Shown one piece after another: positions 36,927 through 56,705 of a stretch of DNA of 64,000 nucleotides. The DNA is from Desulfurivibrionaceae bacterium. GTDB taxonomy: Bacteria; Desulfobacterota; Desulfobulbia; Desulfobulbales; UBA5123. Under the pieces are notes generated by a model. It made no database searches. It was not told where the DNA came from and was given only the letters and a program-made list of their open reading frames with translations. Every line of letters begins with the position of its first letter. The stretch's first letter is position 1. The DNA is taken from NCBI GenBank assembly GCA_030145325.1, contig JAQYVW010000009.1, positions 473 through 64,472 of the forward strand, in the 5' to 3' direction. Made by a program: the position numbers and the translations under genes.

Positions 36927-36932
36927 ATAAAA

Positions 36933-38279: not shown

Positions 38280-39572
38280 ATGCAGCCAAAAGATATCAAA
38301 CCAATCATTAAACCATTTTCTATCCCGGAAAAGTCAGATTTCGACATCCTCATTGTCGACGATGAATTCGTTAACCGGTTCCTGCTTAAGGATATTCTGG
38401 AACAGGACGGTTATCGAACCCACGAGGCAAACAATGGCACCGAGGCCCTTGCCGCTGCCATCAACAACAAAACGGATCTGATTCTGATGGATATCATGAT
38501 GCCGGACATGGATGGCTATGAAACCTGCCGACGGTTGAAGGAAGACCCGTGCACCGCCAACATCCCGGTTATCTTCGTTACCGCCCTCACCGATACTGAA
38601 AATTTGGTCAAGGGATTCTCCGTCGGCGCTGAAGACTACCTGGGCAAACCAATTAAGGACGGTGAGGTAAAGGCCAGGGTGCAAACACACCTGAAACTGA
38701 AAGCCGCCATGGACAAGATCTCTCACTATAATGAAGAACTGGAACAGGTGGTGGCGGAAAGCTCCAAAGAGTTGATCCGCACTGAACGGCAAGCCGCCTT
38801 TGGACAACTCATCCAGGGAATCGTCCATAATCTCAAAGGACCGCTGACCACCATTCGGGGCAGTGCCCAGGCCTGCCGGGCCACGCTGCGGATGATTCGT
38901 ACCGAAATAGACGAGGCCGGAGAAACTCCCTTGCCCGACAACCCCAAAATCACCAAACTTACTGACGGGGCAATAAAGGCCATTGATCTTTCCGAAACCG
39001 CTTCCACTCGCCTCACGGAAATGATCAACTCACTGATGTCAAAAAGCAGCGCCGACCAGGCCAGCAAGCCGGAACGTCTTGACTTAAATACCATTGTCCG
39101 CTCGGAACTGAACTTCATGGAAGGTGATCTGCATTTCAAACACCATATCAAAAAGAATATCGAACTAACCCCTTCTCCGCTCCCGATCATGGCCATTGCC
39201 CCGGAAATAGCCCAGGTTTTCAATAATATAATCGGCAACGCCATTGATGCCATGCATGGCAATGTTGACCAGGCAATATCCATCTCCACAACGAAAAAAA
39301 ACCGGTATGCCAGTCTGTCGATTTCCGATACCGGCAACGGCATTGCCCCTGATAACCTTAACCGAATCTTCGACCCCTTTTTCACCACCAAACCGAAACA
39401 CAACAACGATACACCTCAAAAAAAGGGACCAATCGGCACCGGCTTAGGCCTTTACATGTGTATGCGATCAATAAAAACTATTAATGGCGACATTGTGGTT
39501 GAAAGTAAACCTGGCTCAGGCACGACCTTCAAAATTAAAATACCGCTGGCCGAGCCCATAGATATTTCGTGA
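38280..39572 (+). CDS. Receiver-histidine kinase fusion (REC-HisKA-HATPase)
   Basis: The N-terminal REC contains ILIVDDE...DIMMPDMDG...GKP. The H-box is IVHNLKGPL, followed by N/G boxes (IGNAIDAM, DTGNGI, GTGLGL). It is the first gene of the chemosensory cluster. Confidence 0.85.
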   Translation: MQPKDIKPIIKPFSIPEKSDFDILIVDDEFVNRFLLKDILEQDGYRTHEANNGTEALAAAINNKTDLILMDIMMPDMDGYETCRRLKEDPCTANIPVIFVTALTDTENLVKGFSVGAEDYLGKPIKDGEVKARVQTHLKLKAAMDKISHYNEELEQVVAESSKELIRTERQAAFGQLIQGIVHNLKGPLTTIRGSAQACRATLRMIRTEIDEAGETPLPDNPKITKLTDGAIKAIDLSETASTRLTEMINSLMSKSSADQASKPERLDLNTIVRSELNFMEGDLHFKHHIKKNIELTPSPLPIMAIAPEIAQVFNNIIGNAIDAMHGNVDQAISISTTKKNRYASLSISDTGNGIAPDNLNRIFDPFFTTKPKHNNDTPQKKGPIGTGLGLYMCMRSIKTINGDIVVESKPGSGTTFKIKIPLAEPIDIS

Positions 39573-39651
39573 CCGGCAACGACGAAGATAAATAATTAAA
39601 AAGCAACTACTCACGGGGGCATGGCTAATTCTCCCAATATGAGCGTAATTT

Positions 39652-39758
39652 TAACTGTTTGCAGGGTGCCGGAGATGAAAGGCATCGTTCTGCGAAACAT
39701 ACATTGGTATGTGAGCAGGGCGATAACGCGGCAGATTCGGTACCCTGTGAGCAGTTAC
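39652..39758 (+). repeat. Family-A intergenic inverted-repeat element, copy 3 (minimal 107-nt form)
   Basis: TAACTGTTTGCAGGGTGCCG (39652-39671) pairs with CGGTACCCTGTGAGCAGTTA (39738-39757) over 20 bp. All four non-Watson-Crick pairs are G-T on the + strand. There is also an internal ACATAC/GTATGT hairpin. Confidence 0.75.
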
Positions 39759-39793
39759 ATTAAAAAAATTCACCTCGGGACAAAGAGGAGCAG

Positions 39794-40225
39794 ATGATGG
39801 CTGAGAAACGCAAGAAATACAAAATACTGATCGTCGATGATGATCAAAACATCCTGAACATGCTGGATCTGGCGTTCATTAATACGTCCTACGATATCAC
39901 CACCATCGATCACCCCTTACACGCTTACAAAATGATCGAAAACGAACATTACGACATGGTGATCAGCGATATCCAGATGCCACAGATGGACGGCCTGACC
40001 CTGCTCCGCAAGATCAAAAACTTTAACGGTATGATCCAGGTTGTGATGATGACCGCCCACATTTCCATCAGCAACACCCTGGACGCCTTTCGCTACGGCG
40101 CGGTGGATATATTTTTTAAACCGTTCGCGGATATCAATGAAATCATTCTCGCCGCCGACGGGGTGGCTGCAAAACTGGACAGGGTAAACAACATCTTACG
40201 CCAGCTAACCGATGGAGACAGATAA
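39794..40225 (+). CDS. Single-domain CheY-like response regulator
   Basis: It is a 143-aa REC domain (ILIVDDD...DIQMPQMDG...FKP). Its stop codon is 3 nt before the start of CheA-1. Confidence 0.85.
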   Translation: MMAEKRKKYKILIVDDDQNILNMLDLAFINTSYDITTIDHPLHAYKMIENEHYDMVISDIQMPQMDGLTLLRKIKNFNGMIQVVMMTAHISISNTLDAFRYGAVDIFFKPFADINEIILAADGVAAKLDRVNNILRQLTDGDR

Positions 40226-40228
40226 GCC

Positions 40229-42553
40229 ATGAGCAGCGAAATGGATCTTGATGCCCTGCATGGCTTTCTCGATGAGTCAAGCGACTCCATGCAAGGCATT
40301 GAAGCAGACTTTATCGATCTCGAAAGAGATCCGACCAATATGGAGATCATCAACCGGATATTCCGCCCCATTCACAGCCTGAAAGGGAACTCCGGCTTCT
40401 TCGGCCTAACCAACATCAACAAATTCGCCCACCGCTTGGAAAACCTTCTCGACACCGTCAGACGAGGTGAACTTGCGATCACCAAAGAGATCATCGACAC
40501 CCTTCTCATCGGTGCAGATTTTCTTCGCCAAATGGTGGAACGGGTCTATGAGGACCCCACCGACGTCCTTTTGCGTGACAACGAAGAAGAGTTTTTAGGC
40601 AAGGTCGAACAATTCAAACCGGAAAAACCAACCGGCTCAATTGAGAGCATCCTGACCCTTGAAAAACTCGTCAACGAGGCGATGGATCACGGCATCTCCC
40701 CCACGGACAACACGTTAATCAGTACCCTGCTGGGAAAAATCGAAAAAGCCAACCAAGAAATCAAGCTCATCCTCAGTGACGTCAAAAACGCCGACTCCAC
40801 TGCCAAGCGATCCACCGCCGCCGCTTATATGATTGGTGATGAGGATCACTCCGCAGTGGTCAAACCGCTGCTTGATGTTGCAAGCCAAATGGACAAAAGA
40901 GCAACGGTTGACCGCCAACTCCTAGCTGAGTTCGAAAAATCCCTGGTCACCCTGAACGAGCTTCTTAAAGACGACAGTGACGCCGCCCATGAGTTAGAAG
41001 AACTGCAATCCATGAGCAACTTTCTTGACGATGAATTACTCATCACCAGCCAAGAATTCACCTCATCGACCACAGCATCCATTGATGCCGTTCTGAGCAA
41101 ATTCGACATCGTCAAAACCGAAAGCAAAGATATCGAAGCTGAATCATTTGGCAAGCTCGGAGAAATCCTTATCTCCCAAGACAAGGTCTCACCGGAACAA
41201 CTCACCGATGCGCTTAAAAAACAGAAGAAAGTTGGTGAAATACTGGTGGACGATGGCATTCTCAAGGACCAAGACCTCAAGGAAGCATTAACCATCCAGC
41301 AAAAAAATGCCTTGGCAGAGCATACCAAAAATGAACCTGTTGCTCGCGAAGTTAAAAAAACCATCCGTATCGATCAAGACAAGCTGGACAGTTTTGCCAA
41401 CTTCGTCGGCGAGCTGTTTATCAATATCGATTCTTTCAGCTTCCTGAAAAAGCAATTGGAAGAAACCGACGTCGACTTTGACCTCATGGCCCGCTTCACC
41501 AATACCATCACCTCCCTTGACGAGATGGTGGACACCCTGCAAGAAAGCATCATGGGGATCAGAAAGGTGCCCATCGACACCCTATTCAAACGCTTCCCCC
41601 GCGTAATCCGCCAACTAGCAGGCTCACTGAACAAGGATATCAACTTCAAAATCGTTGGCGAAGATACCGTCATCGACAAAGATCTGCTGGAAAAAATCGA
41701 GAATCCACTGGTCCATATGCTGCGAAATTCGGTGGATCATGGCATCGAAACGCCCGAAGAACGAACCAACAACAACAAGTCTGGCACCGGCACCTTGGAA
41801 CTGAAAGCGGCGGTGGATGAAAATTATGTTTATATCACCATCAACGATGACGGTAAGGGCATTGACCCGCAGATCATCAAGAAAGTGGCGCTGAAGAAAG
41901 AGCTCATCACCCCGGAAGAAGCTGAACAGATGCCAGACAAGGAGTTGATCAACCTCATCTTCAAACCGGGCTTCAGTTTAGCCGAAAAAATCAGCGATGT
42001 CTCAGGACGCGGCGTCGGCATGGATGTGGTGCAGTCGGTATTAAAAGAAACCAGCGGCACGGTGGAGGTAAACTCGGTAATTGACCAAGGCACTAAGGTT
42101 ACGATTAAGATTCCGTTAACCAAAACCCTGGTTGCCAAGGAGGCAATGATTGTTTCCGCTTATGAGCGAACACTGGCCATCCCCTCCGAGGATATTACCG
42201 CCACCATTGAAGCTAAGGACGAGGAAGCAACAAGACTTTTTTCCGGCGACAATTGTATCCAATACCACGGCGCGATTTATCAAGTCATCGATCTTGGCGC
42301 TTTCCTATTCCCCAAAACCATCCGCCAGCGACAAGATGCAGACCGGCATGTTATTATTGTCAGTGAAAAACATAACATCGCCCTATTAGTTGACGAAGTA
42401 TTGAGCCACCAAAAAATTGTCGTCAAAAACTTCACCGGCGGGTACAAAGCTTTAGACAGGGTCCGAGGCATCAACGGCTTTACAATCTTGGGTAACGAGG
42501 ATATTATCCTCATTGCCGATGTACAAAATATTACCGCCCACGCTGTTGATTAA
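40229..42553 (+). CDS. cheA: CheA-type histidine kinase 1 (Hpt, MshEN-like motif pair, dimerisation, HATPase, CheW-like)
   Basis: It has Hpt (FRPIHSLKGNSGFFGL), a P3 region (IRIDQDKLDSFANFVGEL), a kinase core (HMLRNSVDHGIE, DDGKGID, GRGVGMDVV) and a C-terminal CheW-like domain. The LGEILI.../VGEILV... tandem motif lies at aa 309-358. Confidence 0.9.
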   Translation: MSSEMDLDALHGFLDESSDSMQGIEADFIDLERDPTNMEIINRIFRPIHSLKGNSGFFGLTNINKFAHRLENLLDTVRRGELAITKEIIDTLLIGADFLRQMVERVYEDPTDVLLRDNEEEFLGKVEQFKPEKPTGSIESILTLEKLVNEAMDHGISPTDNTLISTLLGKIEKANQEIKLILSDVKNADSTAKRSTAAAYMIGDEDHSAVVKPLLDVASQMDKRATVDRQLLAEFEKSLVTLNELLKDDSDAAHELEELQSMSNFLDDELLITSQEFTSSTTASIDAVLSKFDIVKTESKDIEAESFGKLGEILISQDKVSPEQLTDALKKQKKVGEILVDDGILKDQDLKEALTIQQKNALAEHTKNEPVAREVKKTIRIDQDKLDSFANFVGELFINIDSFSFLKKQLEETDVDFDLMARFTNTITSLDEMVDTLQESIMGIRKVPIDTLFKRFPRVIRQLAGSLNKDINFKIVGEDTVIDKDLLEKIENPLVHMLRNSVDHGIETPEERTNNNKSGTGTLELKAAVDENYVYITINDDGKGIDPQIIKKVALKKELITPEEAEQMPDKELINLIFKPGFSLAEKISDVSGRGVGMDVVQSVLKETSGTVEVNSVIDQGTKVTIKIPLTKTLVAKEAMIVSAYERTLAIPSEDITATIEAKDEEATRLFSGDNCIQYHGAIYQVIDLGAFLFPKTIRQRQDADRHVIIVSEKHNIALLVDEVLSHQKIVVKNFTGGYKALDRVRGINGFTILGNEDIILIADVQNITAHAVD

Positions 42554-42733
42554 AGTCAAGGCGACAACACTCAACGGTTATGTTAAATACTTAAACACCT
42601 CTGACACTCATAACACGATGTGTTGCGAGCAACCGAAACAAAGAACTTCGCAATACTTATTTACGAAATAAACAAACCGGATCAGCACATTATAACCAAG
42701 ATCCTCCAGTAAACATATTCACCAGGCCATTTC

Positions 42734-44047
42734 ATGGGAACAATGGAATCAGATATTTTCAAGGAAGAAGCTTATGATCTTCTTGATGATATAGAAGAAG
42801 CACTCCTTGAATTACGTGACAACCCCGCTGACAGCGAACTAATTAACCGCCTATTCCGCGCCTTTCATACCATCAAGGGATCGGGGGCCATGTTCGGCTT
42901 CAAAGAGGTGTCAAAATTCACCCATGAGGTGGAAACCGCCATCGACAAAATCCGCGAAGGGACCGGGGTGGTGCCGGACGCACTGCGCGAAGTCCTTCTC
43001 ACCGCTCGCGACCAGATCCTCGCCATGATCGAGACGGAAGACCCTGACGCCCCAGAGATTCAGGAAGCGGCACAACTCATCCTCAAGCAACTGGCGCCTG
43101 CTGTCTCAGCAAAAGAAGCGCCACCCGTACAGCAGCCCCCCACCCCCAAGCCTGAACCTGCCGCCGCCCCGCCCGTTATTGCCACGGAAATGCCGACAGT
43201 CCCAAAAACAGAGCCCAAAATCAATAAAGATCCGGACCCTGAAACGCAAGCGCTGCTAACCGAACTTGCAGAACTACTCAATGAAGTTCGAGACTTGTTA
43301 CAAAAACTGCACGAAGAACCCGGCGCCAATAAACTTTGCAAAAAGCTCCACCGATCAATTCATACCGTTGCCGGCACAGCGGCCATGTATGACATGGAAG
43401 CCCTTGCCGAATTCAGCAACAAACTTACCGATATCACTGCCACCATCAAACAAGCTGAAGAACCAGTCAATGATGAAGTGTTAAAAGTACTCACCGCAGC
43501 TATCGACCACTGCTTTTCCCTTCTCCGTTCCACCGACCCATCGGGGCAGGTTCTACAAAGACGCTCAGGCAAAATTACCACCGAACTTGAAGCAATGGTC
43601 AACAAAGACCAAACCAGTATCGGAACAGCGCCGGAAACTTTACGATTCCTTATTGTTGAAGACGAATTCATTAGCCGTTACCTTCTCCAAGAATTCCTGA
43701 CTCCATACGGTAATAGCCATGTTGCCATAGACGGTTACGAGGCTGTCTTGGCTTTTAAAAACGCCATTATCGAAAAGAAACCATACAATATCGTCTGTCT
43801 CGATATCATGATGCCGGGACTTGATGGTCGACAAGTGGCCAAAGAAATTCGCCGCCTGGAAAAAGAAATGGGCAACAACAATTTCTGCAAGATAGTAATG
43901 ACCACGGCTTTAGACGACGAAAGCATCAAGAACGAGTTATTGTCAGATAAACGGTGTGATGCCTATCTGACCAAACCCATACGATTTGAAGACCTTGACC
44001 AATTAATAAAATCATACTTTCCAGACTTCAATACGACAAATAGCTAA
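42734..44047 (+). CDS. Hpt-Hpt-REC phosphorelay protein
   Basis: It has two Hpt signatures (FRAFHTIKGSGAMFGF; HRSIHTVAGTAAMYDM) separated by a Pro-rich linker. A C-terminal receiver follows (FLIVEDEF...DIMMPGLDG...TKP). Confidence 0.85.
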   Translation: MGTMESDIFKEEAYDLLDDIEEALLELRDNPADSELINRLFRAFHTIKGSGAMFGFKEVSKFTHEVETAIDKIREGTGVVPDALREVLLTARDQILAMIETEDPDAPEIQEAAQLILKQLAPAVSAKEAPPVQQPPTPKPEPAAAPPVIATEMPTVPKTEPKINKDPDPETQALLTELAELLNEVRDLLQKLHEEPGANKLCKKLHRSIHTVAGTAAMYDMEALAEFSNKLTDITATIKQAEEPVNDEVLKVLTAAIDHCFSLLRSTDPSGQVLQRRSGKITTELEAMVNKDQTSIGTAPETLRFLIVEDEFISRYLLQEFLTPYGNSHVAIDGYEAVLAFKNAIIEKKPYNIVCLDIMMPGLDGRQVAKEIRRLEKEMGNNNFCKIVMTTALDDESIKNELLSDKRCDAYLTKPIRFEDLDQLIKSYFPDFNTTNS

Positions 44048-44190
44048 CAATCACGACAACCTTTAAGGTAGCCAAAGAATTAACATGTTATAGACTTCCA
44101 AATCAATTACCATACCAGTAAGAGCTACCATTCCAATTAGTATTGATATCAGCAAGCATCGCTGACAAAAATGGCAAAAGGTGAACAAAC

Positions 44191-46500
44191 ATGTCCGACA
44201 AGCTGACGGATGAACAAGTAGAGATCATTGAAGAGTTCATTTGTGAAGTCCGCGACCTGATAGAGACTGCGGAGTCCGATATAATCGGTTTATCCTCCAT
44301 TTACAAAAACAATGAGTCCCAAACCTCAACCGAAAACCTAAAAACTCTTCACACCATCTTTCGTTGCTTCCATTCCATCAAGGGTGGCGCAGCCTTCCTG
44401 CAGTTCAACAATATGGTCACTTGCGCGCACAGCGCGGAAAATCTTCTCGATCTACTCCGAAATGATGAAATAACCCTTCTGCCAGGGCATATCGATCTGC
44501 TCTGCCAAGCCTGCGACTTCATCTCGATTGCTCTGGAACAACTTGAAACCAACCTCAATGATCACGAGCTCACAGAGCAAGCTAACGCCATCCACGATAA
44601 ATTTGAACGCGCCATCGCTGGTATCCCAGAACCGGAAGAATCCCCATCTGAGAACGAAAGCAATGACGACAGTTTATTAATCAATCTTGACCTCAACCCT
44701 TCTCAACTTATCAACCCGGACACACTTCACCATTTCATCGAGGAGTCCAGGGAACTTATTCAGAAAAGCGAAGCGGCTTTACTTGACTGGAGCAAAAACC
44801 CTAACGACTCCGACCCAGAACTAGTTGCGCAACTTTTTCGCAACATTCACAGCATTAAAGGCAACAGCGGTTTTCTCGGATTCTCCGACATGGAGCGCTT
44901 GGCCCACGGGATGGAGAACCTCCTTGATGCTGCCAGAGAAGGCGCCGCCATTAACCGCGGCAAAGCAGCAGAGACCCTCTTGGGGCTTGTAGACATAATC
45001 AGTCATGCCATGGAAGATATCGCCCAGGGAGAAGAATGTAAAATCAAAGGCATAGGCCTTCATCTCGAGGCATTGGCTGATCTTCTCCCCGACACCCCTT
45101 CCTCCAATGTACCGTTACCAAAACTTGGTGAAATTCTTGTCGATCAAGGCGTTGTCAGTGAAGACGCCCTGGAAAATGCCTTGGATGTCCAGAATAAACC
45201 TCTCGGTGAAATCCTGGTCGAAACCGGCGCAGCCACAGAAGAGCAAGTCGCGCAGGCCGTGCAAACTCAGAAGAAACAAGCAATCGTCCCAGGCAAGGCC
45301 ACAAAAACAACCGCTCGTCAGGACATCCGAGTTGACCTCGGCAAACTTGACAGTCTCATCAACCTCATCGGCGAAATGGTTATTGCTGAAAATATGTTGA
45401 TCAACAACCCTGATCTGCAAGATCTGGAATTGGAAAATTTCAACAAAGCCGGCCAGCACATGGACAAAATCATCCGTGAATTACAGGAAATGGCCATGTT
45501 TATCCGCATGGTGCCGGTGGCAGGCCTCTTTCGGCGCATGACCCGGCTGGTACATGATCTTTCCCGAAAATCCGGCAAAAAAGTTGACCTGCAACTGGTT
45601 GGAGAGACCACCGAGGTCGACAAAACGGTTATCGAATTAATTACTGACCCCCTGGTTCACCTTCTTCGCAACTCCATGGATCACGGCCTTGAGCCCCCAG
45701 AGGAACGCTTGCAAGCAGGCAAAAAAGATACCGGGATTCTACGTTTGTCCGCAACCCATGAAGAAGGCGAAGTCCTGATCACCATCACCGATGATGGGCG
45801 GGGGTTGAACAGAGAAAAAATCATCGCTAAAGCCATGGAAAAAGGTGTCCTTGACGATGATGGATCTCAGATGAGCGATTCAGATGTCTTTAACCTCATT
45901 TTCCTGCCCGGCTTTTCCACCGCCGACCAGGTTACCGATGTTTCTGGTCGCGGTGTTGGGATGGATGTGGTTCGCAAGAACCTTGAAAAGATCAAGGGCA
46001 AAATTGAAATTAAGAGCAAGCAAGGGGGCGGCACCACCATTATCTTGCGCATTCCGCTGACCCTGGCAATCATCGACGGGATGATGATCCGGGTGGGCAC
46101 TGCGCTATACATCGTGCCGCTTCTCTCAATCCGCGAATCATTCCGTCCCAGCCACGAATTGATTACCGTTTCTCCAGATGGTCAAGAACTGGCCAAGGTA
46201 CGCGAGAACCTGCTGCCGGTGGTGAGACTCCACGATCTTCACAAAATCAGCCCAGACTTCGATGAACTAGACAAAGGTATCCTCATTGTCCTTGAAGGCC
46301 AGGATCTTAATTTTTGCCTTTTTGTCGACGAAATCATGGGTCAGCAACAGACGGTTATCAAAGGTCTATCAGAATACATCTCCGTACTTGGCAATGTCGG
46401 CGGTGTTTCCGGCTGCACCATTCTCGGCAATGGCGATGTCTGCCTGATCCTTGATGTACATTCATTGGTGGATGTCGCTCTCAGCGATAACGAAGAGTGA
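44191..46500 (+). CDS. cheA: CheA-type histidine kinase 2 (two Hpt domains, MshEN-like motif pair, dimerisation, HATPase, CheW-like)
   Basis: It has Hpt1 (FRCFHSIKGGAAFLQF), Hpt2 (FRNIHSIKGNSGFLGF), a P3 region (IRVDLGKLDSLINLIGEM), a kinase core (HLLRNSMDHGLE, DDGRGL, GRGVGMDVV) and a CheW-like C-terminus. The tandem LGEILV motif lies at aa 311-360. Confidence 0.9.
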   Translation: MSDKLTDEQVEIIEEFICEVRDLIETAESDIIGLSSIYKNNESQTSTENLKTLHTIFRCFHSIKGGAAFLQFNNMVTCAHSAENLLDLLRNDEITLLPGHIDLLCQACDFISIALEQLETNLNDHELTEQANAIHDKFERAIAGIPEPEESPSENESNDDSLLINLDLNPSQLINPDTLHHFIEESRELIQKSEAALLDWSKNPNDSDPELVAQLFRNIHSIKGNSGFLGFSDMERLAHGMENLLDAAREGAAINRGKAAETLLGLVDIISHAMEDIAQGEECKIKGIGLHLEALADLLPDTPSSNVPLPKLGEILVDQGVVSEDALENALDVQNKPLGEILVETGAATEEQVAQAVQTQKKQAIVPGKATKTTARQDIRVDLGKLDSLINLIGEMVIAENMLINNPDLQDLELENFNKAGQHMDKIIRELQEMAMFIRMVPVAGLFRRMTRLVHDLSRKSGKKVDLQLVGETTEVDKTVIELITDPLVHLLRNSMDHGLEPPEERLQAGKKDTGILRLSATHEEGEVLITITDDGRGLNREKIIAKAMEKGVLDDDGSQMSDSDVFNLIFLPGFSTADQVTDVSGRGVGMDVVRKNLEKIKGKIEIKSKQGGGTTIILRIPLTLAIIDGMMIRVGTALYIVPLLSIRESFRPSHELITVSPDGQELAKVRENLLPVVRLHDLHKISPDFDELDKGILIVLEGQDLNFCLFVDEIMGQQQTVIKGLSEYISVLGNVGGVSGCTILGNGDVCLILDVHSLVDVALSDNEE

Positions 46501-46668
46501 TTCACCCGCATCGCACGTCCCTCCCCGCCCTCCACACTACAAAGCTGTAAACATCCCACGACTTTGTTAACAATTACGTAACACTCACCCCACACCTTTC
46601 TCGCTCGCCCCTTCACCCTACGTATAAAAAGTTCCTAATTACAACACAATGAGATGGCTGTTCCAGCC

Positions 46669-46685
46669 TGGCACATTTCGTGCAT
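46669..46685 (+). promoter_or_regulatory. Putative sigma-54 (-24/-12) promoter for MCP-1
   Basis: The sequence is TGGCACATTTCGTGCAT. GG and GC are separated by exactly 10 nt, as in the TGGCAC-N5-TTGCW consensus. It lies about 110 nt upstream of the MCP-1 ATG. Confidence 0.55.
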
Positions 46686-46794
46686 TTCCTTCTCAAGTTC
46701 GAGGAAGATGCTCAATCACCTTCACTGGTCTAAAAAATGGCATCGTCAAAACAAAAAAGCCATTACCGGCCTTTCATTTTATGGAGAACTATTA

Positions 46795-49737
46795 ATGTTC
46801 AAGAATCTTAAACTTACCAAAAAACTCCTTATTGCTTTTCTCGGCGTAGGGCTAATCCCTTTTGCTGCCGTTGGCCTTACCGCTCTACTTAAAGCCAGTA
46901 GCGCCCTTGATCAGTCGGCATTTAATCAATTGCAGTCGGTTCAGGCAATCAAGAAAGCTCAGATCCAACGCTTCTTCACCGAGCGTAAAGGCGACATGGC
47001 CGTGTTACTGAATACCACTGCCGCTTTTGACGATGAGGTAAGCAGTAAAATTTACGCCATCCAAAACAACAAGAAAGAAGCGCTGGAACTGATCAGCCAG
47101 CAATGGTTCACCGATATCAAGATCCAGCAAGGTCAGGACATTTCCAGCAAAGGTTTGCCGCACTTCCAAAATTATCTCAAAACAGGCAAGAAATCGGCGC
47201 AATACAAACACTACGCCACGCAAGTTTCGCAATTCATGAAGGCCACCGGCTACTACGATTACTTTGTCATCGACAAATCCGGCCTTTGCGTCTTCACCGA
47301 CGCCAAGGAGGCGGATTACAAAACAAACCTTCTTAACGGCCCCTACAAAGACTCCGGCCTTGGAGTCGCCACCAAACGCGCCTTCAATGGAGAAACAGCC
47401 ATTGAAGATTTCGCTTCCTATGCACCCTCAAACGGCGCCCCAGCTGCTTTTATTGCTGCCCCGATCCGAAGAGGGAAAAACATCATCGGGGTTGTCGCCC
47501 TGCAAATCCCCCATGAAAAGGTGCAAGCCATTGTTGCCGAACGCACCGGCCTCGGCATAAGCGGCGAGGCTTACCTTGTGGGCAGAAAGGACGGCAAAAC
47601 CGGCTATCGCAGCAATCGCGTCATCAAGAACGGCAAGCTCGGCCAGGATAAAAATGGTGCCGACATCAACAAGGCGCTGGTAGGCGAAGCAGGGGTTCGC
47701 TTCAAGAAGGGCAGCACCGGCGACATGGAACTGGTCGCCTATACACCGGTTAAGATCCCCGGCCTTGACTGGGCTTTAATCACCTCCATGAGTCTCGAAG
47801 AGGCCATGGCTCACAAAGAAAAAGGCGATAAAGAGGATTACTTTGCAAAATACGTCAGGCAATACGGCTACTACGACCTCTTCCTGATTGAACCGGAAGG
47901 CAAGGTTTATTACTCGGTGACCCATGAGGCCGATTACGATACCAATATGATTAATGGCAAGTACGCCGATTCCGGGCTCGGTAAACTGGTCCGCCGGGTT
48001 ATTCAGGAAAAGAAATACGGGGTAGCAGACTTCGCCCCCTATGCACCCAGCAACAACGAACCAGCCGCTTTCATCGCCGCTCCTGTTTTTCGCAACGGCG
48101 AACTCCAACAGATCGTCGCCCTGCAACTGTCACTGGAGGCGATCAACAACATCATGCAGCAGCGTGAAGGGATGGGCGAAACCGGCGAGACTTATCTGGT
48201 TGGCCCGGACAAACTTATGCGTTCGGACTCCTTCCTTGACCCCACCAATCATTCGGTCAAAGCCTCGTTTGCCAACCCAACCACCGGCAGTGTCAACACC
48301 GAGGCCGCCCGCGAAGCACTGGCCGGACAGTCCGATTCTAAAATCATCATCGACTATAACGGCAATCCGGTTCTTTCCGCCTACACCCCACTGAAGGTTG
48401 GCGACAGCACCTGGGCAGTCATCGCCGAAATTGATGAAGCAGAGGCCTTTGCGGCCATCAACACCTTGAAATGGGTAATAGGTATCGTCTTTGTCGTCGG
48501 CATGGCCGCCATTATCGTCGTTGCCCTGACCATCACCCGTTCCATCACTCAGCCGGTGAGCAAAACCGTCCTCATGCTTGACGAGATGGCCAAGGGTCAC
48601 CTGGACAACCGACTAAACATGGATCGAGGCGACGAGATCGGCCAGATGGCTAAGACCATGGACTCTTTTGCCGATAGTTTGCAAAACGAAATGGTGGCAG
48701 CGCTGAACAAGCTGGCTGACGGCGACCTAACCTTTGATGCCAATCCACACGATGAGAATGACACCATCAGAAACTCGCTGAAAAAAACCGGTGACGACCT
48801 GAACAAACTGATCTCCGAAATCCTCACCGCCACCGAACAGATCGCCAGCGGTTCCGGCCAGGTTTCCGATTCCAGCCAGGCCCTCTCCCAAGGGGCGACA
48901 GAACAGGCGGCATCACTTGAGCAGATCACCAGCTCCATGACCGAGATGGGCTCACAAACCAGATTAAACGCCGAGAACGCCACCCAGGCCAATCAGTTAG
49001 CCAGCCAGACCAGGAGTGCAGCAGAAAGCGGCAATACGAAAATGCAGGAGATGGTCTCGGCCATGGGTGAAATCAACGAGGCGGGCCAAAGCATCTCCAA
49101 GATCATCAAGGTTATTGATGAGATTGCCTTTCAGACCAACCTACTGGCCTTGAACGCGGCAGTGGAAGCGGCCCGGGCCGGGCGTCATGGCAAGGGTTTT
49201 GCGGTGGTTGCAGAAGAGGTACGCAACCTGGCTGCCCGTAGCGCCAAGGCAGCTAAAGAAACCGCAGAGCTCATCGAAAGCTCGGTGGAAAAAACCAAGA
49301 ACGGCACCCAAATCGCCGAGGCGACCAGCGAGGCACTGGCCGAAATAGTCGGCTCGGTCACCAAGGTCACCGATCTTGTCGGCGAAATCGCTGCCGCTTC
49401 TAATGAGCAGGCGCAAGGAATCAACCAGACAAATCAGGCCTTGGGCCAGATCGATCAGGTAACCCAGCAGAACACCGCCAGCGCCGAAGAGAGCGCCGCT
49501 GCCTCGGAAGAGCTTTCCGGCCAGGCCATGCACATGAAAGAGATGATGAGCCGCTTCCGGGTCCGCGACATGGGCCAAGGAGGGATGCGCCAGCAACCCA
49601 TGTCACGGCAACAAAACGGCTGGGGAAACGCAACGCAACAACCACTGCCGCAACCACAGGCCCCAGGCCATTTACCCCGCCCCTTTGCGCCAAGTGAAAT
49701 AATAACCTTGGACGACAAGGAATTCGGTAAATATTAA
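46795..49737 (+). CDS. Methyl-accepting chemotaxis protein 1 (duplicated double-Cache-like periplasmic sensor, HAMP, MA domain)
   Basis: I set the start at the ATG at 46795, which has a GGAG Shine-Dalgarno 8 nt upstream and aligns with the MF(K/S)..KL..KLLIAFL N-termini of the other two MCPs. The signalling hairpin is [21 protein letters not shown]. The ORF-track start at 46654 adds 47 non-homologous residues. Confidence 0.9.
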
Positions 49738-49762
49738 TCGCTATAATAGCGAATGTTTCCAA

Positions 49763-49797
49763 ATGGCGTCCCTAGGTTCAGGGACGCCATTTTTTTT
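49763..49797 (+). terminator. Rho-independent terminator after MCP-1
   Basis: ATGGCGTCCCT pairs with AGGGACGCCAT in an 11-bp stem with a 6-nt loop, followed by T7. Confidence 0.85.
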
Positions 49798-49931
49798 AAT
49801 TTTTTTCTATCAAATAACTACCCAAAAGCGTTCAACAAAAGTGTACACATCTATTCAATTTTGTTGAACATTCACCTTACGCCTAACAATGCACATATGC
49901 ACAACACCTTTAAATCATTGTAAAAAATAAT

Positions 49932-49960
49932 TTGACAGCTTTACAACAGTTACTGATAAT
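49932..49960 (+). promoter_or_regulatory. Putative sigma-70-type promoter of cheW-mcp cassette 1
   Basis: TTGACA (49932-49937), a 17-nt spacer, then GATAAT (49955-49960). The block is conserved in cassette 2. Confidence 0.55.
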
Positions 49961-50095
49961 AAAAATCCTAGGCATTCTCAGTTGGTAATATCATAAAACA
50001 CTGCCCCTTAACCCCATTTCCAAAAGACTCCTTTGGCAACCTCACTTTCGCAACAGGAATTGCTAAAATAGAGCATTTTAACAAGGAGAGAAGCT

Positions 50096-50602
50096 ATGGC
50101 TGAAGATCAAGTTGTCGACATGGAGGATGATCTCTACGACGACGAAGACACCATGAAGGACAAGTACCTCACCTTCCATCTGGCCGGTGAGGATTACGGC
50201 CTTGACATCGTTTTTGTCACCGAGATCATCGGCATCCAGAAAATCACCGAAGTGCCGGACATGCCTAACTTTGTTAAGGGGGTAATCAACCTACGCGGCA
50301 AGGTAATCCCGGTGATGGACGTACGGTTACGTTTCAACTTGCAGGAACGTGATTACGACGAACGCACCTGTATCGTAGTCGTTGATATTAACGGCACCGC
50401 CGTCGGCCTTGTTGTTGATCAGGTCAACGAGGTGGCCGATATCCCCGAGGCACAGGTCGAGCCGCCCCCACGCACCACCAAGGGGACGACCAGCCGCTTC
50501 TTAAAGGGCATGGGCAAGGTGGATGAAGAAGTCCGCATCCTGCTCAATGTCGACAAGCTGCTCTACGACGAAGAAATGGAAATGCTTGCTGGTGCGGCGT
50601 AA
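50096..50602 (+). CDS. cheW: CheW coupling protein (copy 1)
   Basis: It is a 168-aa canonical CheW domain with an acidic N-terminal extension (MAEDQVVDMEDDLYDDED). Confidence 0.9.
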   Translation: MAEDQVVDMEDDLYDDEDTMKDKYLTFHLAGEDYGLDIVFVTEIIGIQKITEVPDMPNFVKGVINLRGKVIPVMDVRLRFNLQERDYDERTCIVVVDINGTAVGLVVDQVNEVADIPEAQVEPPPRTTKGTTSRFLKGMGKVDEEVRILLNVDKLLYDEEMEMLAGAA

Positions 50603-50648
50603 TCTTTCCTGAGAAAAAATCACAACATAACAAATAACGAGGTGAACA

Positions 50649-53588
50649 ATGTTTAGTAGACTTAAATTGGGCCAAAAACTTCTTATCGCCTTCCTCTGCG
50701 TCGGGGTTATCCCCTTTGCGGTGGTCGGCCTAAGTTCGCTGATCAAGGCCAGTAATGCCTTGGAGTATGCAGCCTTCAACCAGCTGAACGCCGTTCAGGG
50801 AATCAAAAAGAAACAGATTGAAAATTTCTTCAACGAGCGCAAAGGCGACATGACGGTTTTGCTTGATACCATTGAAACATTTGTCGATGAAAACGCCGAC
50901 AAAATGTTGGCCATCCAGAAGAACAAGAAGGAAGCCATTGAAGAGATTGGTGAGCAATGGATCTTGGATGTTGAAGGAATGTCCGACGATGATCTTCTCA
51001 GCGAAGGCATAGATCACTGTAAGCAATTTATTAAAACCGGCAAAAAAACCGCAGCATATCGTGAATTTTCCCTTGAAGTTGATACGTTTACCAAAAGGTC
51101 CGGCTATTACGATTTCTTCGTCATCGACACAACGGGTCTTTGTGTCTACAGCACTGCCAAAGAAGCGGACTACAAATCAAATCTCCTCACCGGTCCCTAC
51201 AAAAATAGCGGCCTGGGCCACGCCACCCGCAACGCCATGCAGGGCAAGACTTACATTGATGACTTTTCCCCCTACGCCCCTTCAAACGGTGAGCAGTCTG
51301 CTTTTATTGCCGCCCCGATTAAAGATGGCGACAAGATTGTCGGGGTTGTAGCTTTACAGATCCCCACCGACGAGATTCAAGCCATCACGGCTGACCGCAC
51401 CGGCCTTGGTCACAGCGGCGAAGCGTACCTGATCGGCACTCTTGACGGCCAGATCGCGATGCGCTCCAATCGGACCGTCAAGAGTGACAAAATCGGCGAC
51501 GCAAAAAAAGGACAAGATATCGACAAGGCCATGGCTGGCGAAACCGGTTGGATGTTCAAGAAGGGCAGCAGCGGCGCCATGGAGATGAGTACCTATACCC
51601 CTCTTGAGATCCCCGGTCTTAAATGGGCGATGGTCACCTCCATGAGCCTAGAGGAGGCAATAGCCAAAAAAGAAGAAGGCGCTAGCGAGGATTACTTCTC
51701 TCGTTATATCCAGCAGTACGGCTATTACGATCTCTTCCTCATTGAACCGGGTGGGCAAGCGTATTACACGGTGAGCAAGGAGGCGGATTACAAAACCAAC
51801 ATGGTAAACGGAAAATACGCCGACTCGAACTTGGGCGAACTGGTCCGGCAGGTCCTGCAAACCAGGCAGTACGGGGTGGCCGATTTCGCCCCTTACGCAC
51901 CCTCAAACAACGAACCCTGCGCTTTTATCGCTGCTCCGATCATCCACCAAGGCAAGGTGGAACAGGTCATCGCCATGCAGTTGTCGCTTGAAGCGATCAA
52001 CTCCATCATGCAACAACGCGACGGGATGGGCGAAACCGGAGAAACCTACTTGGTCGGCCCTGATAAGTTGATGCGTTCCGATTCCTTTCTTGACCCCACC
52101 AACCATTCGGTCAAGGCCTCCTTTGCCAACCCGGCCACCGGTAGCGTTGACACCGAGGCCGCCCGCGAGGCCCTGGCAGGCAGGAACGATGCCAAGATCA
52201 TTATTGATTACAACGGCCAACCGGTTCTTTCCGACTATGCACCGCTGAAGATCGGTGACAAAACCTGGGCAGTCATCGCCGAGATCGATGAGGCCGAGGC
52301 CTTTGCCGCCGTCAACTCCTTGAAATGGGTAATAGGCATCGTCTTTGTCATCGGCCTCGGTGCCATTATATCCGTAGCGTTGATGATCACCCGCTCCATT
52401 ACCCAACCGGTAACCAAAACCGTGCACATGCTTGAGGAGATGGCCAAGGGCCACCTGAATATCCGCCTCAACATGGACCGTGCCGATGAAATCGGCCAGA
52501 TGGCCAAAACCATGGACGCCTTTGCCGACAGCCTGCAGAACGAGATGGTGGCGGCGCTCAACAAACTGGCCGCTGGCGATCTCACCTTTGACGCCACCCC
52601 CCATGATGAAGCCGACGCGATTAGAAACTCTCTGAAGAAGACCGGAGACGATCTCAATACCCTGATCAGCGACATCCTCACCGCCACCGAACAGGTGGCC
52701 AGCGGTTCTGGCCAGGTCTCAGACTCCAGCCAATCCCTCTCTCAAGGTGCCACCGAACAGGCGGCCTCCCTGGAAGAGATCACCAGTTCAATGACCGAGA
52801 TGGGCTCACAGACCAAGTTGAATGCCGAAAATGCCACCCAGGCCAACCAATTGGCAGGCCAAACCAAAACTGCGGCTGAAGGCGGCAACGCCAAAATGCA
52901 GGAGATGGTCACCGCCATGGGCGAGATCAACGAGGCAGGGCAAAACATCTCGAAGATCATCAAGGTTATCGACGAGATCGCCTTCCAGACCAACCTGTTG
53001 GCCTTAAACGCAGCGGTGGAAGCCGCCCGCGCCGGTCGCCATGGCAAGGGCTTTGCCGTGGTCGCCGAAGAGGTCCGCAATCTCGCCGCTCGTAGCGCCA
53101 AAGCGGCCAAGGAAACCGCCGAGCTCATCGAGGGCTCGGTGGAAAAAACCAAGAACGGTACCAAAATCGCCGAAGCAACCAGCGATGCATTGGCCGAAAT
53201 CGTTACCTCGGTCACCAAGGTGACGGACCTGGTCGGTGAGATCGCCGCCGCCTCCAACGAGCAGGCGCAGGGGATCAACCAGACCAATCAGGCCTTGGGC
53301 CAGATCGATCAAGTGACCCAGCAGAACACCGCCAGCGCTGAAGAGAGTGCGGCGGCCTCGGAAGAACTATCCGGGCAGGCCATGAACATGAAAGAAATGA
53401 TGAGCCGCTTCACGGTTCGTGATATGGGCAGCGGCTCTGGCCGTCAGCAAGCCTCCCTGCCGAGTCCAACTCAATCCACGCCACAAAACGGCTCTTGGGG
53501 AGGAGGCCAGCAAACAGCCGCGAGAAAATCCGCTCCGGCCCCCAGCGACCTCATCGCCCTTGACGACAAGGAGTTCGGCAAGTACTAA
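50649..53588 (+). CDS. Methyl-accepting chemotaxis protein 2 (duplicated double-Cache-like sensor, HAMP, MA domain)
   Basis: It is a full-length paralogue of MCP-1 with the same architecture and the same C-terminal LDDKEFGKY tail. Confidence 0.9.
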
Positions 53589-53611
53589 CAACGTAAAAAT
53601 ATCATAAAAAA

Positions 53612-53650
53612 ATGGCGTCCCTGGTTTTCCCAGGTGACGCCATTTTTTTT
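53612..53650 (+). terminator. Rho-independent terminator after MCP-2
   Basis: ATGGCGTCCCTGG pairs with CCAGGTGACGCCAT (one bulge), followed by T8. It is homologous to the MCP-1 terminator. Confidence 0.85.
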
Positions 53651-53780
53651 ACTATTTCTATCGACCTACCACAAGAAGGCAGTTCAACAGATTTGAACAT
53701 ATGTTCTCAGTTTTGTTTAACATTTCACAAGACCTAACCACAAGCACACCCACACCTTCAACATAATTACAAAAAATAAT

Positions 53781-53810
53781 TTGACACCTTCATGTACGTC
53801 TGCTGATAAT
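53781..53810 (+). promoter_or_regulatory. Putative sigma-70-type promoter of cheW-mcp cassette 2
   Basis: TTGACA (53781-53786), a 17-18-nt spacer, then (T)GATAAT. It is a paralogous copy of the 49932 promoter block. Confidence 0.55.
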
Positions 53811-53944
53811 AAAAACTCTAGGCATTATCAGTTGGCAATATAGTAAGATCCTAATCCTTATCACCATCACAAAATGTTCTTTTGCAACTACACCTCCGCA
53901 AGAGGAATTGCAAAAACAGAACACTTTAAACCAGGAGAGAAGCA

Positions 53945-54451
53945 ATGGCAGAAGATCAAGTTGTCGACATGGAGGATGACCTCTACGACGACGAAGACAC
54001 CATGAAGGACAAGTACCTCACCTTTCACCTGGCCGGTGAGGATTACGGCATCGACATCGCCTTTGTCACTGAGATTATCGGTATCCAAAAGATTACCGAA
54101 GTTCCGGACATGCCTGACTTTGTCAAGGGGGTAATCAACCTGCGCGGCAAGGTGATCCCGGTGATGGATGTGCGCTTGCGCTTTCATCTGGATGAGCGCG
54201 ATTACGACGAACGCACCTGTATCGTGGTGGTTGATATCAACGGCACTGCTGTCGGTTTGGTGGTTGATCAGGTTAACGAAGTAGCCGACATCCCGGAAGC
54301 GGATGTGGAGCCGCCGCCCCGCACCACCAAGGGTAGCAGCAGCCGCTATCTAAAAGGAATGGGCAAGGTGGAAGAACAAGTCCGCATCCTCCTGAATGTG
54401 GACAAACTACTCTACGACGAAGAAATTGAACAAATCGTCGCGGCAGCTTAA
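53945..54451 (+). CDS. cheW: CheW coupling protein (copy 2)
   Basis: It is 168 aa. By my manual alignment it differs from copy 1 at 16 positions. Confidence 0.9.
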   Translation: MAEDQVVDMEDDLYDDEDTMKDKYLTFHLAGEDYGIDIAFVTEIIGIQKITEVPDMPDFVKGVINLRGKVIPVMDVRLRFHLDERDYDERTCIVVVDINGTAVGLVVDQVNEVADIPEADVEPPPRTTKGSSSRYLKGMGKVEEQVRILLNVDKLLYDEEIEQIVAAA

Positions 54452-54497
54452 TCAATCGCCACAACAACACTTTATAAAACTAAAATGAGGTATTCAT

Positions 54498-56678
54498 ATG
54501 TTCAGTAGACTGAAACTAGGTCAAAAACTTCTTATCGCCTTCCTCTGCGTCGGGGTGATCCCCTTCTCGGTGGTAGGTCTCACCGCCTTGCTCAAAGCCA
54601 GCGCCGCCTTAAATCAATCCTCCTTTAACCAGCTCAATGCGGTGCAGGGGATCAAGAAAGCGCAGATCACCACCTTCTTTGACGAACGGCATGGCGATAT
54701 GAACGTGCTGGTGAACACGGTGGGCAATTTCATTAAAGAAGCCGGCACCATTGATGCCGCCATGGCAGGCCTGACCGAGGGAGGTACTGACTACTTCGCC
54801 GACTACATCAAGGATTACGGTTACTATGACCTCTTCCTCATTGACGCTCAGGGGAAGGCGTTCTACACCGTCGCCAAGGAGTCTGATTACAACAGTAACT
54901 TTGTCAACGGCAAGTACGCCAGCTCCAACCTGGGCAAACTGGTTCGTCAGGTCATCCAGACCAGACAATACGGGATGGCCGATTTCGCCCCTTACGCCGC
55001 CAGCAATAACGAGCCATGCGGCTTCATCGCCGCGCCACTTATTGAAAATGGTGAGGTAAAATTGGTCATCGGTCTACAGTTGTCGCTGGAAGCAATGAAC
55101 CGGATTATGCAACAGCGCGACGGGATGGGCAAAACCGGCGAAACCTATCTGGTCGGTTCCGACAAGTTGATGCGTTCTGATTCCTTCCTTGACCCCACCG
55201 GCCATTCGGTTAAAGCCTCTTTTGCCAACCCAGCCACCGGCAGTGTCGACACCGAGGCCGCCCGTGATGCGCTGGCCGGGCGCACCGATTCGAAAATCAT
55301 CATCGACTACAACGGCAACCCGGTTCTCTCCTCCTATGCACCAATGAAAATCGGCGACACCACCTGGGCGGTTATCGCCGAGATCGACGAGTCGGAAGCC
55401 TTTGCCGCCGTCAACGCCTTGAAATGGGTCATCGGCATCGTCTTTGTCATCGGTGTGGCCGGTATTATCACCGTGGCCCTGATGATCACTCGCTCCATCA
55501 CCCAGCCGGTGGGCAAGACGGTACACATGCTCGAGGAAATGTCCAAAGGCCACCTTGACTTACGCCTTAACATGGACCGCGCCGATGAGATCGGCCAGAT
55601 GGCCAAAACCATGGACTCCTTTGCCGACAGCCTGCAAAAAGAGATGGTGGGCGCGCTAAACATGTTAGCCGACGGCGATCTTACCTTTGACGCCACCCCC
55701 CAAGACGAGAACGACGCCATCAGGAACTCGCTGAAGAAAACCGGCGATGACCTCAATATCCTGATCACCGATATCCTCACCGCCACCGAACAAGTGGCCA
55801 GCGGCTCCGGCCAGGTATCAGATTCCAGCCAAGCCCTTTCCCAGGGTGCCACTGAACAGGCAGCATCCTTGGAAGAGATCACCAGTTCCATGACCGAGAT
55901 GGGCTCTCAAACTAAACTGAATGCCGAAAACGCTACTCAGGCTAACCAGTTGGCCAGTCAGACCAAAACCGCTGCGGAAGGCGGCAACGCCAAGATGCAG
56001 GAAATGGTTTCGGCCATGGGCCAGATCAACGAGGCAGGTCAGAATATCTCCAAGATCATCAAGGTTATCGATGAGATCGCCTTTCAAACCAACCTTCTTG
56101 CCTTAAACGCAGCCGTGGAAGCGGCACGGGCTGGTCGTCATGGCAAGGGCTTTGCTGTGGTTGCCGAAGAGGTACGAAACCTCGCCGCTCGTAGCGCCAA
56201 GGCCGCTAAAGAAACCGCTGAGCTCATTGAAGGGTCGGTGGAAAAAACCAAGAACGGCACCGCCATCGCCGAATCAACCAGCGAAGCGTTGGCTGAAATT
56301 GTTTCCTCCGTAACCAAGGTGACTGATCTGGTGGGAGAAATCGCTGCCGCTTCCAACGAACAGGCCCAAGGCATCAACCAGACCAATCAGGCCCTGGGCC
56401 AGATTGATCAAGTAACCCAACAGAACACTGCCAGCGCCGAAGAAAGTGCGGCCGCCTCGGAAGAGCTTTCCGGCCAAGCGATGAATATGAAAGAGATGAT
56501 GAGCCGCTTCAAGGTTCGCGACATGGGCCGTAGCGCCGGAATACGCCAACAACCTACAAGGCCAACGCCGCAGCAAAACGACTGGGGTACCAGTCAGCAA
56601 AAACCGCTGCCGAGAGCTCAGGCTCCTGCCGCCCATGAGGTTATAGCCTTGGATGACAAGGAGTTTGGTAAATACTAA
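54498..56678 (+). CDS. Methyl-accepting chemotaxis protein 3 (single double-Cache-like sensor, HAMP, MA domain)
   Basis: Its N-terminus, TM segments, HAMP, MA domain and tail match MCP-2. It lacks the first sensor module, roughly 250 aa. Confidence 0.9.
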
Positions 56679-56705
56679 ATAAACAAAGAGAATAATAACC
56701 TACTA

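Follow-up and report, generated by a model that had tools for sequence, protein, structure and literature searches.

The Pil-Chp system of Pseudomonas aeruginosa, to which ChpA and FimL belong, combines many histidine phosphotransfer (Hpt) domains with many receivers. ChpA is one polypeptide that carries its receiver at the C terminus; its partners are the receptor PilJ and the adaptation enzymes PilK and ChpB, and its gene is linked to pil genes. PilJ-type receptors reportedly belong to the 40H length class, unlike Tar. A second point of reference is provided by the E. coli-like clusters, represented here by those of Desulfurivibrio alkaliphilus (CP001940, approximately 779–801 kb), Desulfuromonas sp. 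AOP6 and Geobacter (Tran et al. 2008). Their receptors are of the 36H class, which has been associated with chemosensory class F7 (10.1101/2022.05.07.491037), and in a published comparison the che cluster of strain AOP6, like 36H receptors, was specific to the flagellated strains (PMC8235581). In the Che3 system of Rhodospirillum centenum (ACF class), which controls cyst formation, CheA3 phosphorylates the receiver of CheS3, and only CheS3 phosphorylates CheY3 (PMC3868531). Here we compare with these systems a ten-gene chemosensory cluster at positions 38280–56678 of a 64,000-nucleotide stretch of DNA (the window) from a Desulfurivibrionaceae bacterium (assembly GCA_030145325.1, contig JAQYVW010000009.1). 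The window is nearly the entire 64,824-bp contig of a metagenome-assembled genome (MAG), and absences reported for it apply to these approximately 64 kb. With a probability of roughly 60%, we regard the locus as the reduced form, particular to its lineage, of a composite chemosensory cluster that a small uncultured clade of Desulfobulbaceae has conserved, and as working by the mechanism proposed below.

Pfam scans of the main non-overlapping open reading frames (ORFs) bore out the domain content given in an earlier note on this DNA, which had been made from the sequence alone. All ten genes lie on the + strand and encode, in order, a REC-HisKA-HATPase_c histidine kinase (REC-HK), a single-domain CheY-like receiver, a first CheA (CheA1), an Hpt-Hpt-REC protein, a second CheA (CheA2), and three methyl-accepting chemotaxis proteins (MCP1, MCP2 and MCP3) separated by two CheW proteins (CheW-a and CheW-b). 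The count of five Hpt domains likewise holds, each with its phosphoacceptor histidine (Pfam, sequence and alignment). Each of the three receivers of the cluster retains its acidic pocket, Thr and Lys, and the N, G1, F and G2 boxes are intact in both CheAs and in the REC-HK. Judged by homology, the genes form two modules. Module B, consisting of CheA2, the three 36H dCache_1 MCPs and the two CheWs, is an E. coli-like (F7-type) array, and module A, consisting of the REC-HK, CheY and CheA1, is built around a Desulfobulbales-type CheY-CheA1 pair.

The kinase of module B, CheA2 (44191..46500, +), contains two Hpt domains followed by P3, P4 and P5 and lacks P2. Its P3–P5 core is 47% identical to that of E. 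coli CheA, and in a neighbor-joining tree of P3–P5 cores its family clusters with the E. coli and Polynucleobacter kinases. Full-length orthologues with two Hpt domains, at 53–57% identity, are abundant in the Desulfobulbales and Desulfuromonadales; those of the E. coli-like clusters (53–55%) also share the linker module discussed below. CheR and CheB are found beside CheA2 orthologues in loci L003–L016, L036, L037 and L038, with CheB 50–53% identical to the E. coli protein, and a CheR-CheB-CheD-HDOD-CheX set adjoins them in many Desulfobacterota. The D. alkaliphilus cluster runs MCP-CheR-CheB-CheA2-Hpt-REC-CheD-HDOD-REC-CheX. Flagellar linkage was seen in Desulfuromonas sp. AOP6 alone: there the orthologue abuts flgBC and fliE–fliJ and is followed by CheR-CheB-CheD-HDOD-REC-REC-CheX-CheX. 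The E. coli-like clusters resemble the window in their 36H receptors, which carry the same C-terminal tail, in their type of CheW and in having an accessory pair of Hpt and REC. They differ in carrying CheR-CheB beside CheA2 and CheD-HDOD-CheX, in lacking the REC-HK, CheY and CheA1, and in encoding the Hpt and REC as separate small genes.

The three receptors of module B share the 36H signalling domain and vary in their periplasmic part. MCP1 (46795..49737, +) has a transmembrane segment, a tandem dCache_1-type periplasmic region, a further transmembrane segment and two HAMP domains; MCP2 (50649..53588, +) has two dCache_1 stretches and HAMP; and MCP3 (54498..56678, +) has a single dCache_1 and two HAMP domains. 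The doubling of dCache_1 is thus direct in MCP2, extends to MCP1 through the 74% identity between the two, and is absent from MCP3. The alignment of MCP3 with E. coli Tar is free of gaps all the way between the HAMP junction and the hairpin's end, and the arms measure 126 + 126 residues from the tip, the length of the 36H class. CheW-a (50096..50602, +; Pfam E 5e-42) is 90% identical to CheW-b (53945..54451, +; Pfam E 4e-42) and 38% identical to E. coli CheW. The F7/E. coli-like traits found at the locus are therefore 36H receptors and one kinase, CheA2 and not CheA1, that groups with E. coli CheA; CheR and CheB with the kinase, a motor-binding CheY and flagellar linkage are not found in the window.

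Module A begins with the REC-HK (38280..39572, +), which has an N-terminal receiver and retains its H-box histidine. Orthologues occupy the same position in loci L001, L002, L034, L035, L036 and L039, and in all composite clusters the REC-HK joins the CheY-CheA1 pair. The CheY-like receiver (39794..40225, +) ends 3 bp before CheA1 and shares 62–65% identity with the receivers that immediately precede CheA1 in Thiovibrio (L031) and L036, which marks it by sequence and position as the conserved partner of this kinase. CheA1 itself (40229..42553, +) has one Hpt domain (residues 11–106), P3, P4 and P5, and lacks P2. Its family comprises approximately 90 full-length clusters at ≥47% identity, and every source name given is that of a Desulfobulbales-type lineage or a broader label. 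The possibility that CheA1 is a recent duplicate of CheA2 was considered and ruled out by the identity of only about 35% between the two and by the separate long branch that CheA1 occupies in the tree. In Thiovibrio sp. JS02 and related MAGs, the CheY-CheA1 pair stands alone, followed by an NtrC-type sigma54 regulator, and at the level of the locus neither an MCP nor a CheW lies beside it. In the Thiovibrio-type loci L031 and L032 (7194–13750) the pair is flanked by a gene for a PilT-like T2SSE ATPase and one for the NtrC-type sigma54 activator, a context that hints at a transcriptional or pilus-related output of CheA1. In locus L035, a CheW follows CheA1 directly.

Both modules are found together in several loci. 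The full version of the composite cluster occurs on metagenome contig ERZ27296367 k141_1395559 (L036) and in a JGI assembly (L041). On the + strand, L036 encodes a REC-HK, CheY, CheA1, Hpt-REC, CheA2, MCP, CheW, CheR, CheB, Hpt, REC and REC-HK, and upstream on the − strand a REC-HEAT protein, REC-CheX, HDOD-HD and CheD. Its proteins are 48–76% identical to those of the window, and MCP2 is the orthologue, at 76% identity over its full length, of the L036 MCP that precedes CheW-CheR-CheB. Within L036 18393–21989, the last three genes of the + strand encode an Hpt protein of 128 residues, a REC protein of 136 and a second REC-HK of 354. A second lineage with the full version (L034, L040 and L066; Ga0224496_10000043) has CheD-HDOD-REC-CheX upstream and MCP-MCP-CheW-CheR-CheB downstream. 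A check of synteny in relatives thus finds the order REC-HK, CheY, CheA1, Hpt-REC, CheA2, MCP, CheW of the window in two metagenome loci. Relative to the window, the full versions add CheR-CheB-Hpt-REC-(REC-HK) downstream and CheD, HDOD-HD and REC-CheX upstream; relative to them, the window has two extra cheW-mcp units and, upstream, genes for MBL-fold, hemerythrin, AI-2E and Bax1-I proteins.

The reduced version is found in the window, in UBA5121 (L001) and in Ga0224496_10001183 (L039); the nearest genomes in a GTDB scan are Desulfobulbaceae MAGs at 70–81% identity. In all three loci, a block encoding an AI-2E transporter, hemerythrin and an MBL-fold protein abuts the REC-HK (window 33852–37700, − strand; L001 2–2329; L039 288–3559). 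Bax1-I belongs to the block in the window and in L039, and the coverage of L001 begins inside the AI-2E gene. Because three genomes share this upstream boundary, the reduced form is a real inherited state of the subclade and not an artefact of assembly. The downstream end of the cluster is reached in the window alone. The block itself includes two hemerythrin genes in the window (35775–36182 and 36301–36714), and a tie to oxygen sensing is possible. L001 (2380–3855) and L039 (3910–5247) have a gene for a multi-pass membrane protein (445–491 residues) between the MBL gene and the REC-HK, where the window has a 579-bp AT-rich spacer instead; this protein is unrelated to chemotaxis, which rules it out as an additional chemotaxis gene.

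As the earlier note had stated, cheR, cheB, cheD, cheC/cheX and cheZ are absent from the 64 kb, both in the Pfam scans of the main ORFs and in tblastn searches with the E. coli proteins. Further tblastn searches of the window at E ≤ 10, with CheR, CheB, CheD, CheX and HDOD proteins from the orthologous clusters, returned only matches to REC domains, so no pseudogene remnants of the adaptation genes are present there. In the window, the two extra cheW-mcp units occupy the place of L036 CheR-CheB, followed by a strong terminator and a convergent gene for a thiamine pyrophosphate (TPP)-dependent enzyme. The further claim of the note, that the pathway has no methylation or adaptation, does not stand as worded: orthologous clusters of the same order have CheR/CheB and CheD/CheX, and the receptors keep their methylation pairs and C-terminal tail. 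The absence of cheR and cheB from inside the window does stand, and the contig ends near its edge; that relatives with the same gene order carry both genes within the cluster goes part of the way toward what the note itself had named as refuting it. In L036, the opposite strand carries another CheB-CheD pair, which brings CheB and CheD to two copies each within 22 kb; L036-type genomes thus hold adaptation genes in multiple copies. As a general caution for annotation, a single MAG contig without cheR and cheB is no evidence for an adaptation-free pathway.

The receptors themselves carry the evidence on this question. The EQ/EE pairs of the window MCPs fit the methylation consensus and, in the alignment, coincide with the methylation sites of Tar. 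Systems independent of methylation are characterized by receptors without methylation sites and tether, a trait that the window MCPs do not show. All three end in ...(I/L)I(T/A)LDDKEFGKY, and the same tail, EVIALDDxEFG(K/R)Y, is found on the MCPs adjoining CheR/CheB in L036 and D. alkaliphilus. The P/Q-rich linkers preceding the tail have diverged freely, even among the three paralogues of the window, and the conservation of the tail despite this divergence points to selection on it. In Geobacter, the sequence xF/YxxF/Y (consensus EFEKF) is described as a CheR-tethering pentapeptide, there on 34H receptors (Tran et al. 2008), and the tail of the window MCPs is tether-like, a putative CheR tether. 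Since the receptors look methylatable and tether-bearing, the prediction is that the genome does have CheR and CheB and that they act in trans.

The Hpt-Hpt-REC protein (42734..44047, +; two Hpt domains and REC by Pfam) lies between CheA1 and CheA2 in the gene order. The form with two Hpt domains is rare: a set of 5.8 billion proteins yields 13 clusters of it at 90% identity, and shorter Hpt-REC relatives number approximately 30. Its REC domain is 66% identical to that of its L036 counterpart and shares 43–49% identity with the small REC encoded after CheA2-Hpt in D. alkaliphilus (49%) and L036; by this measure it is a paralogue of the CheY-like gene found after CheA2-Hpt in relatives. The first Hpt domain is strongly conserved in the alignment and the second is divergent (HTVAG). 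In the second Hpt of the window protein, Ala replaces the conserved Lys after the His, and in the corresponding protein of UBA5121 (L001 8549–9835) the phosphoacceptor His itself is replaced by Arg (alignment column ~210). The second Hpt domain may be degenerating or non-catalytic. A faint precomputed match to FimL_C, on this protein and on some CheA2 orthologues, was not reproduced by a direct Pfam scan.

Both kinases contain an MshEN-like module between Hpt and P3, at the place of P2 in E. coli CheA, and motif matching and profile comparison agree with the earlier note that these motifs are real. Matches were sought with the MshEN motif in a relaxed form, [RKPN]hGxxhhxx[GAS]hhxxxxhxxxhxx[QNKRYWST], of which MshEN has two tandem 24-residue copies (Wang et al. 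2016, PMC5013675). CheA2 has two tandem matches (residues 311 and 337) within a module at residues 311–360 (nucleotides 45121–45270). In CheA1, where the module (residues ~309–357, nucleotides 41153–41299) follows a long helical linker, there is one match (residue 334) and a degenerate first copy. The motif recurs in most orthologues of both families. A profile of the 67-residue linker matched the N-domains, c-di-GMP-binding and of solved structure, of PilF (E 1.7e-30), PilB (E 4.6e-11) and MshE (5HTL; E 3.1e-10). The likeness to the MshEN domains of MshE, PilB and PilF thus lies in the tandem 24-residue LGxxLVxxG...LxxxLxxQ motifs and in significant profile matches; the differences are that MshEN is N-terminal on an ATPase, whereas the module of the window kinases is inserted between Hpt and P3, and that the window motifs begin with K or P where MshEN has R. 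By homology, the output of these kinases is probably gated by cyclic di-GMP (c-di-GMP) through an MshEN-type module. In the literature searched, no experimental study of an MshEN-bearing CheA was found.

From domain content, receptor length class, homology, synteny and the absences from the contig, we infer a mechanism in which every phosphotransfer step, the binding of c-di-GMP, the sharing of arrays and the action of CheR and CheB in trans are predictions. The three dCache receptors and two CheWs would build an E. coli-type array with CheA2 as the ancestral kinase. CheA1 would dock onto the same MCP arrays through its P5 domain and the CheWs, as CheA2 does through its own. CheA2 would phosphorylate the REC domain of the Hpt-Hpt-REC protein, and CheA1 would phosphorylate its CheY partner and the receiver of the REC-HK, on the model of R. 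centenum CheA3-CheS3 (PMC3868531). The likeness to Che3 is architectural: a second, REC-containing kinase and a single-domain CheY accompany CheA, with the three genes adjacent and the arrangement conserved. Che3 differs in having a single CheA, which carries a receiver, as well as CheB and CheR. Phosphoryl groups may also reach the receiver and Hpt domains of the Hpt-Hpt-REC protein, giving a branched phosphorelay whose final output would be encoded elsewhere. Both kinases would be modulated by c-di-GMP through the four-helix MshEN-type module in place of P2. In the ancestral cluster, CheR-CheB would have followed MCP-CheW, and CheD-HDOD-REC-CheX would have lain upstream; these genes would since have left the locus while the cheW-mcp unit was duplicated, and CheR and CheB would now act from elsewhere in the genome. 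The earlier note had called the locus an uncharacterised variant, and for the exact two-kinase arrangement, which has no prior characterization, this description is sustained.

Several observations weigh against this interpretation. CheR, CheB, CheD and CheX are found neither on the 64 kb nor on the covered parts of L001, L002 and L039. The tail of the window MCPs, EFGKY, is of the form xFxxY, which Tran et al. (2008) tie to 34H and not 36H receptors, and L036 CheR is missing three residues of the pentapeptide-binding loop of the E. coli enzyme. The signalling domains of the window MCPs are approximately 95% identical to those of CheR-linked orthologues, so the retained methylation sites could reflect a recent loss of methylation. 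In the MshEN-like module, the spacer between motifs is 2 residues in CheA2 and 1 in CheA1, compared with 5 in MshEN, and an AlphaFold2 model of the module, with four helices and a mean pLDDT of 84, has MshE (5HTL) as its top Foldseek match without significance (E 0.44, TM 0.41). CheA1 does not group with E. coli CheA, and the placement of this long-branched kinase on arrays shared with CheA2 is a tentative part of the mechanism. The best of the window receivers is 34% identical to E. coli CheY, compared with 43% for the AOP6 CheY; a flagellar output of the window cluster would be tentative.

The same gaps in the locus could mean that the pathway has become free of adaptation, with CheR, CheB, CheD and CheX lost and with the extra REC and Hpt phosphate sinks, together with c-di-GMP, providing adaptation or signal termination. 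Neither the adaptation genes nor remnants of them remain in the 64 kb, unrelated genes replace the CheD-HDOD-CheX block in three genomes, cheW-mcp copies and a terminator stand at the L036 position of CheR-CheB, and the additional receivers and Hpt domains could indeed be sinks. We nevertheless consider this unlikely, given that each of the three paralogues retains Tar-type methylation pairs and the C-terminal tail despite the diverged linkers, that several copies of CheR, CheB or CheD per relative's genome make a copy in trans likely, and that the visible part of the genome is only about 64 kb. A more elaborate scheme, in which two unrelated CheAs share one 36H array, both are gated directly by c-di-GMP through an MshEN module in the place of P2, methylation is dispensed with, and the Hpt-Hpt-REC protein and the REC-HK act as sinks or relays, seems to us distinctly improbable. 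We continue to favor a reduced composite cluster with its adaptation enzymes in trans, and on that reading the two modules work as one. They could instead be independent neighbors without cross-talk, with the CheA1 pathway using receptors encoded elsewhere and the Hpt-Hpt-REC, CheA2, MCP and CheW genes forming a separate E. coli-like pathway. CheY-CheA1 does occur without module B in Thiovibrio-type genomes, and CheA2 without module A in Desulfuromonas and D. alkaliphilus; the kinases, about 35% identical, lie on different branches, and intergenic gaps of 140–360 nt with internal promoters and terminators divide the genes. We judge such independence quite unlikely, however: the juxtaposition and order of the two modules are kept across loci whose proteins have diverged to 50–80% identity, CheA1 possesses a P5 domain, yet its minimal context supplies neither a receptor nor a CheW, and CheW directly follows CheA1 in L035.

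The earlier note had preferred a disassembled ChpA-type (Tfp-class) kinase over a flagellar-type pathway, and a system of this kind would control type IV pili or some other output than flagella. In its favor, the five Hpt domains and three receivers are distributed among neighboring genes, pilus ATPases are otherwise the typical carriers of MshEN modules, a PilT-like ATPase gene lies near CheY-CheA1 in Thiovibrio, and the faint precomputed FimL_C match would point the same way. The many Hpt domains and receivers are, however, the extent of the resemblance to Pil-Chp. The receptors have the length of Tar and are not PilJ-like. The core of CheA2, as described above, places it in the same group of the tree as E. 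coli CheA, and two Hpt domains are the norm for its whole family, which is linked to flagellar genes (fliE–fliJ and flgBC in AOP6) and to CheR/CheB/CheD/CheX, so their number is not the sign of a dismantled ChpA that it had been taken for. Neither CheA of the window combines multiple Hpt domains with a C-terminal receiver, the additional Hpt domains and receiver being on a separate protein, and the FimL_C match noted above failed to reappear. PilK and ChpB have no counterpart at the locus, and among the window ORFs scanned there is no linkage to pilG/H/I/J/K or type IV pilus genes. By description, Pil-Chp is thus set apart, and a Tfp-class origin is very improbable. The note's observation that no flagellar or pilus genes lie near the cluster is confirmed for the window ORFs scanned with Pfam.

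The signals between the genes divide the cluster into several transcription units. The MCP1 ORF opens at 46654, with a 47-codon N-terminal extension (46654–46794) that is missing from MCP2 and MCP3; its true start is probably 46795, which matches the starts of the other two and leaves a sigma54-like sequence inside the extension. This sequence, TGGCAC-N5-GTGCA (TGGCACATTTCGTGCA; 46669..46684, +; pattern match), lies approximately 110 nt 5′ of the probable start. It is the single sigma54-like site found by pattern search in the intergenic regions of the cluster, which contain no sigma28-like sites. An intrinsic terminator with a 13-bp stem and a T run follows MCP1 (49761..49792, +), and a sigma70-like promoter, TTGACA-17-GATAAT (49932..49960, +; 11 of 12 matches), precedes cheWa. 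After MCP2, a terminator-like hairpin with a bulged stem and a T run (53612..53650, +) was read from the sequence and is not listed by the scanner; a sigma70-like promoter before cheWb (53781..53810, +) again has 11 of 12 matches. No other sigma70-like site of the region scores as well as these two. The unit of promoter, cheW and mcp forms a tandem duplication (49738–56678), with 80% DNA identity over the first 988 bp and 74% in the intergenic/promoter region. An intrinsic terminator found by the terminator scan closes the cluster after MCP3 (56705..56731, +), and the next gene is the convergent TPP-dependent enzyme gene (57127–58932). A single operon of ten genes is ruled out by the internal promoters and terminators.

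Elsewhere in the window, Pfam identifies housekeeping genes and a number of hybrid histidine kinases, along with two hemerythrins and one more CheW-like ORF. This stand-alone third CheW-like ORF (19874–20539, +; 221 residues; Pfam CheW E 1e-32, split in two stretches) is distant from the cluster and overlaps an unannotated ORF on the opposite strand (19706–20338). A hybrid kinase at 30566–33436 (+) has a dCache_3-HisKA-HATPase architecture and several receiver stretches but lacks an Hpt. Its homologues, 38–47% identical, are found within or beside composite che clusters (L034 12340–15117, L035 360–8111 and L004 2203–4695), and that of L034 has its own Hpt; the window kinase may be a source of phosphoryl groups for the Hpt domains of the Hpt-Hpt-REC protein. 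Hpt is also lacking in a hybrid kinase at 10174–13644 (+), which has a Tll0287-like domain, three PAS domains, HisKA, HATPase and REC, and in a HATPase-REC kinase truncated at the end of the contig (63347–63994, −). The source genome thus has many kinases that would require a separate Hpt protein.

The uncharacterised features of the locus are the conserved pairing of a Desulfobulbales-specific CheY-CheA1 with an E. coli-like module, the rare Hpt-Hpt-REC protein and, in both kinases, the MshEN-type module in place of P2; CheA had already been listed as a partner of MshEN (Wang et al. 2016, PMC5013675). Should the composite cluster function as a single unit, it would offer a natural example of one array being read by two different CheAs, with the signal split into a branched phosphorelay. 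To our knowledge, the known inputs of c-di-GMP into chemosensory pathways act through CheR adaptors, PilZ receptors or the motor and not at the kinase. If the MshEN-type module binds c-di-GMP, it would feed a second messenger directly into the kinase itself. A natural comparison is also offered by the full and reduced versions of the cluster, from which the fate of an E. coli-type array may be followed once its adaptation genes have left the operon.

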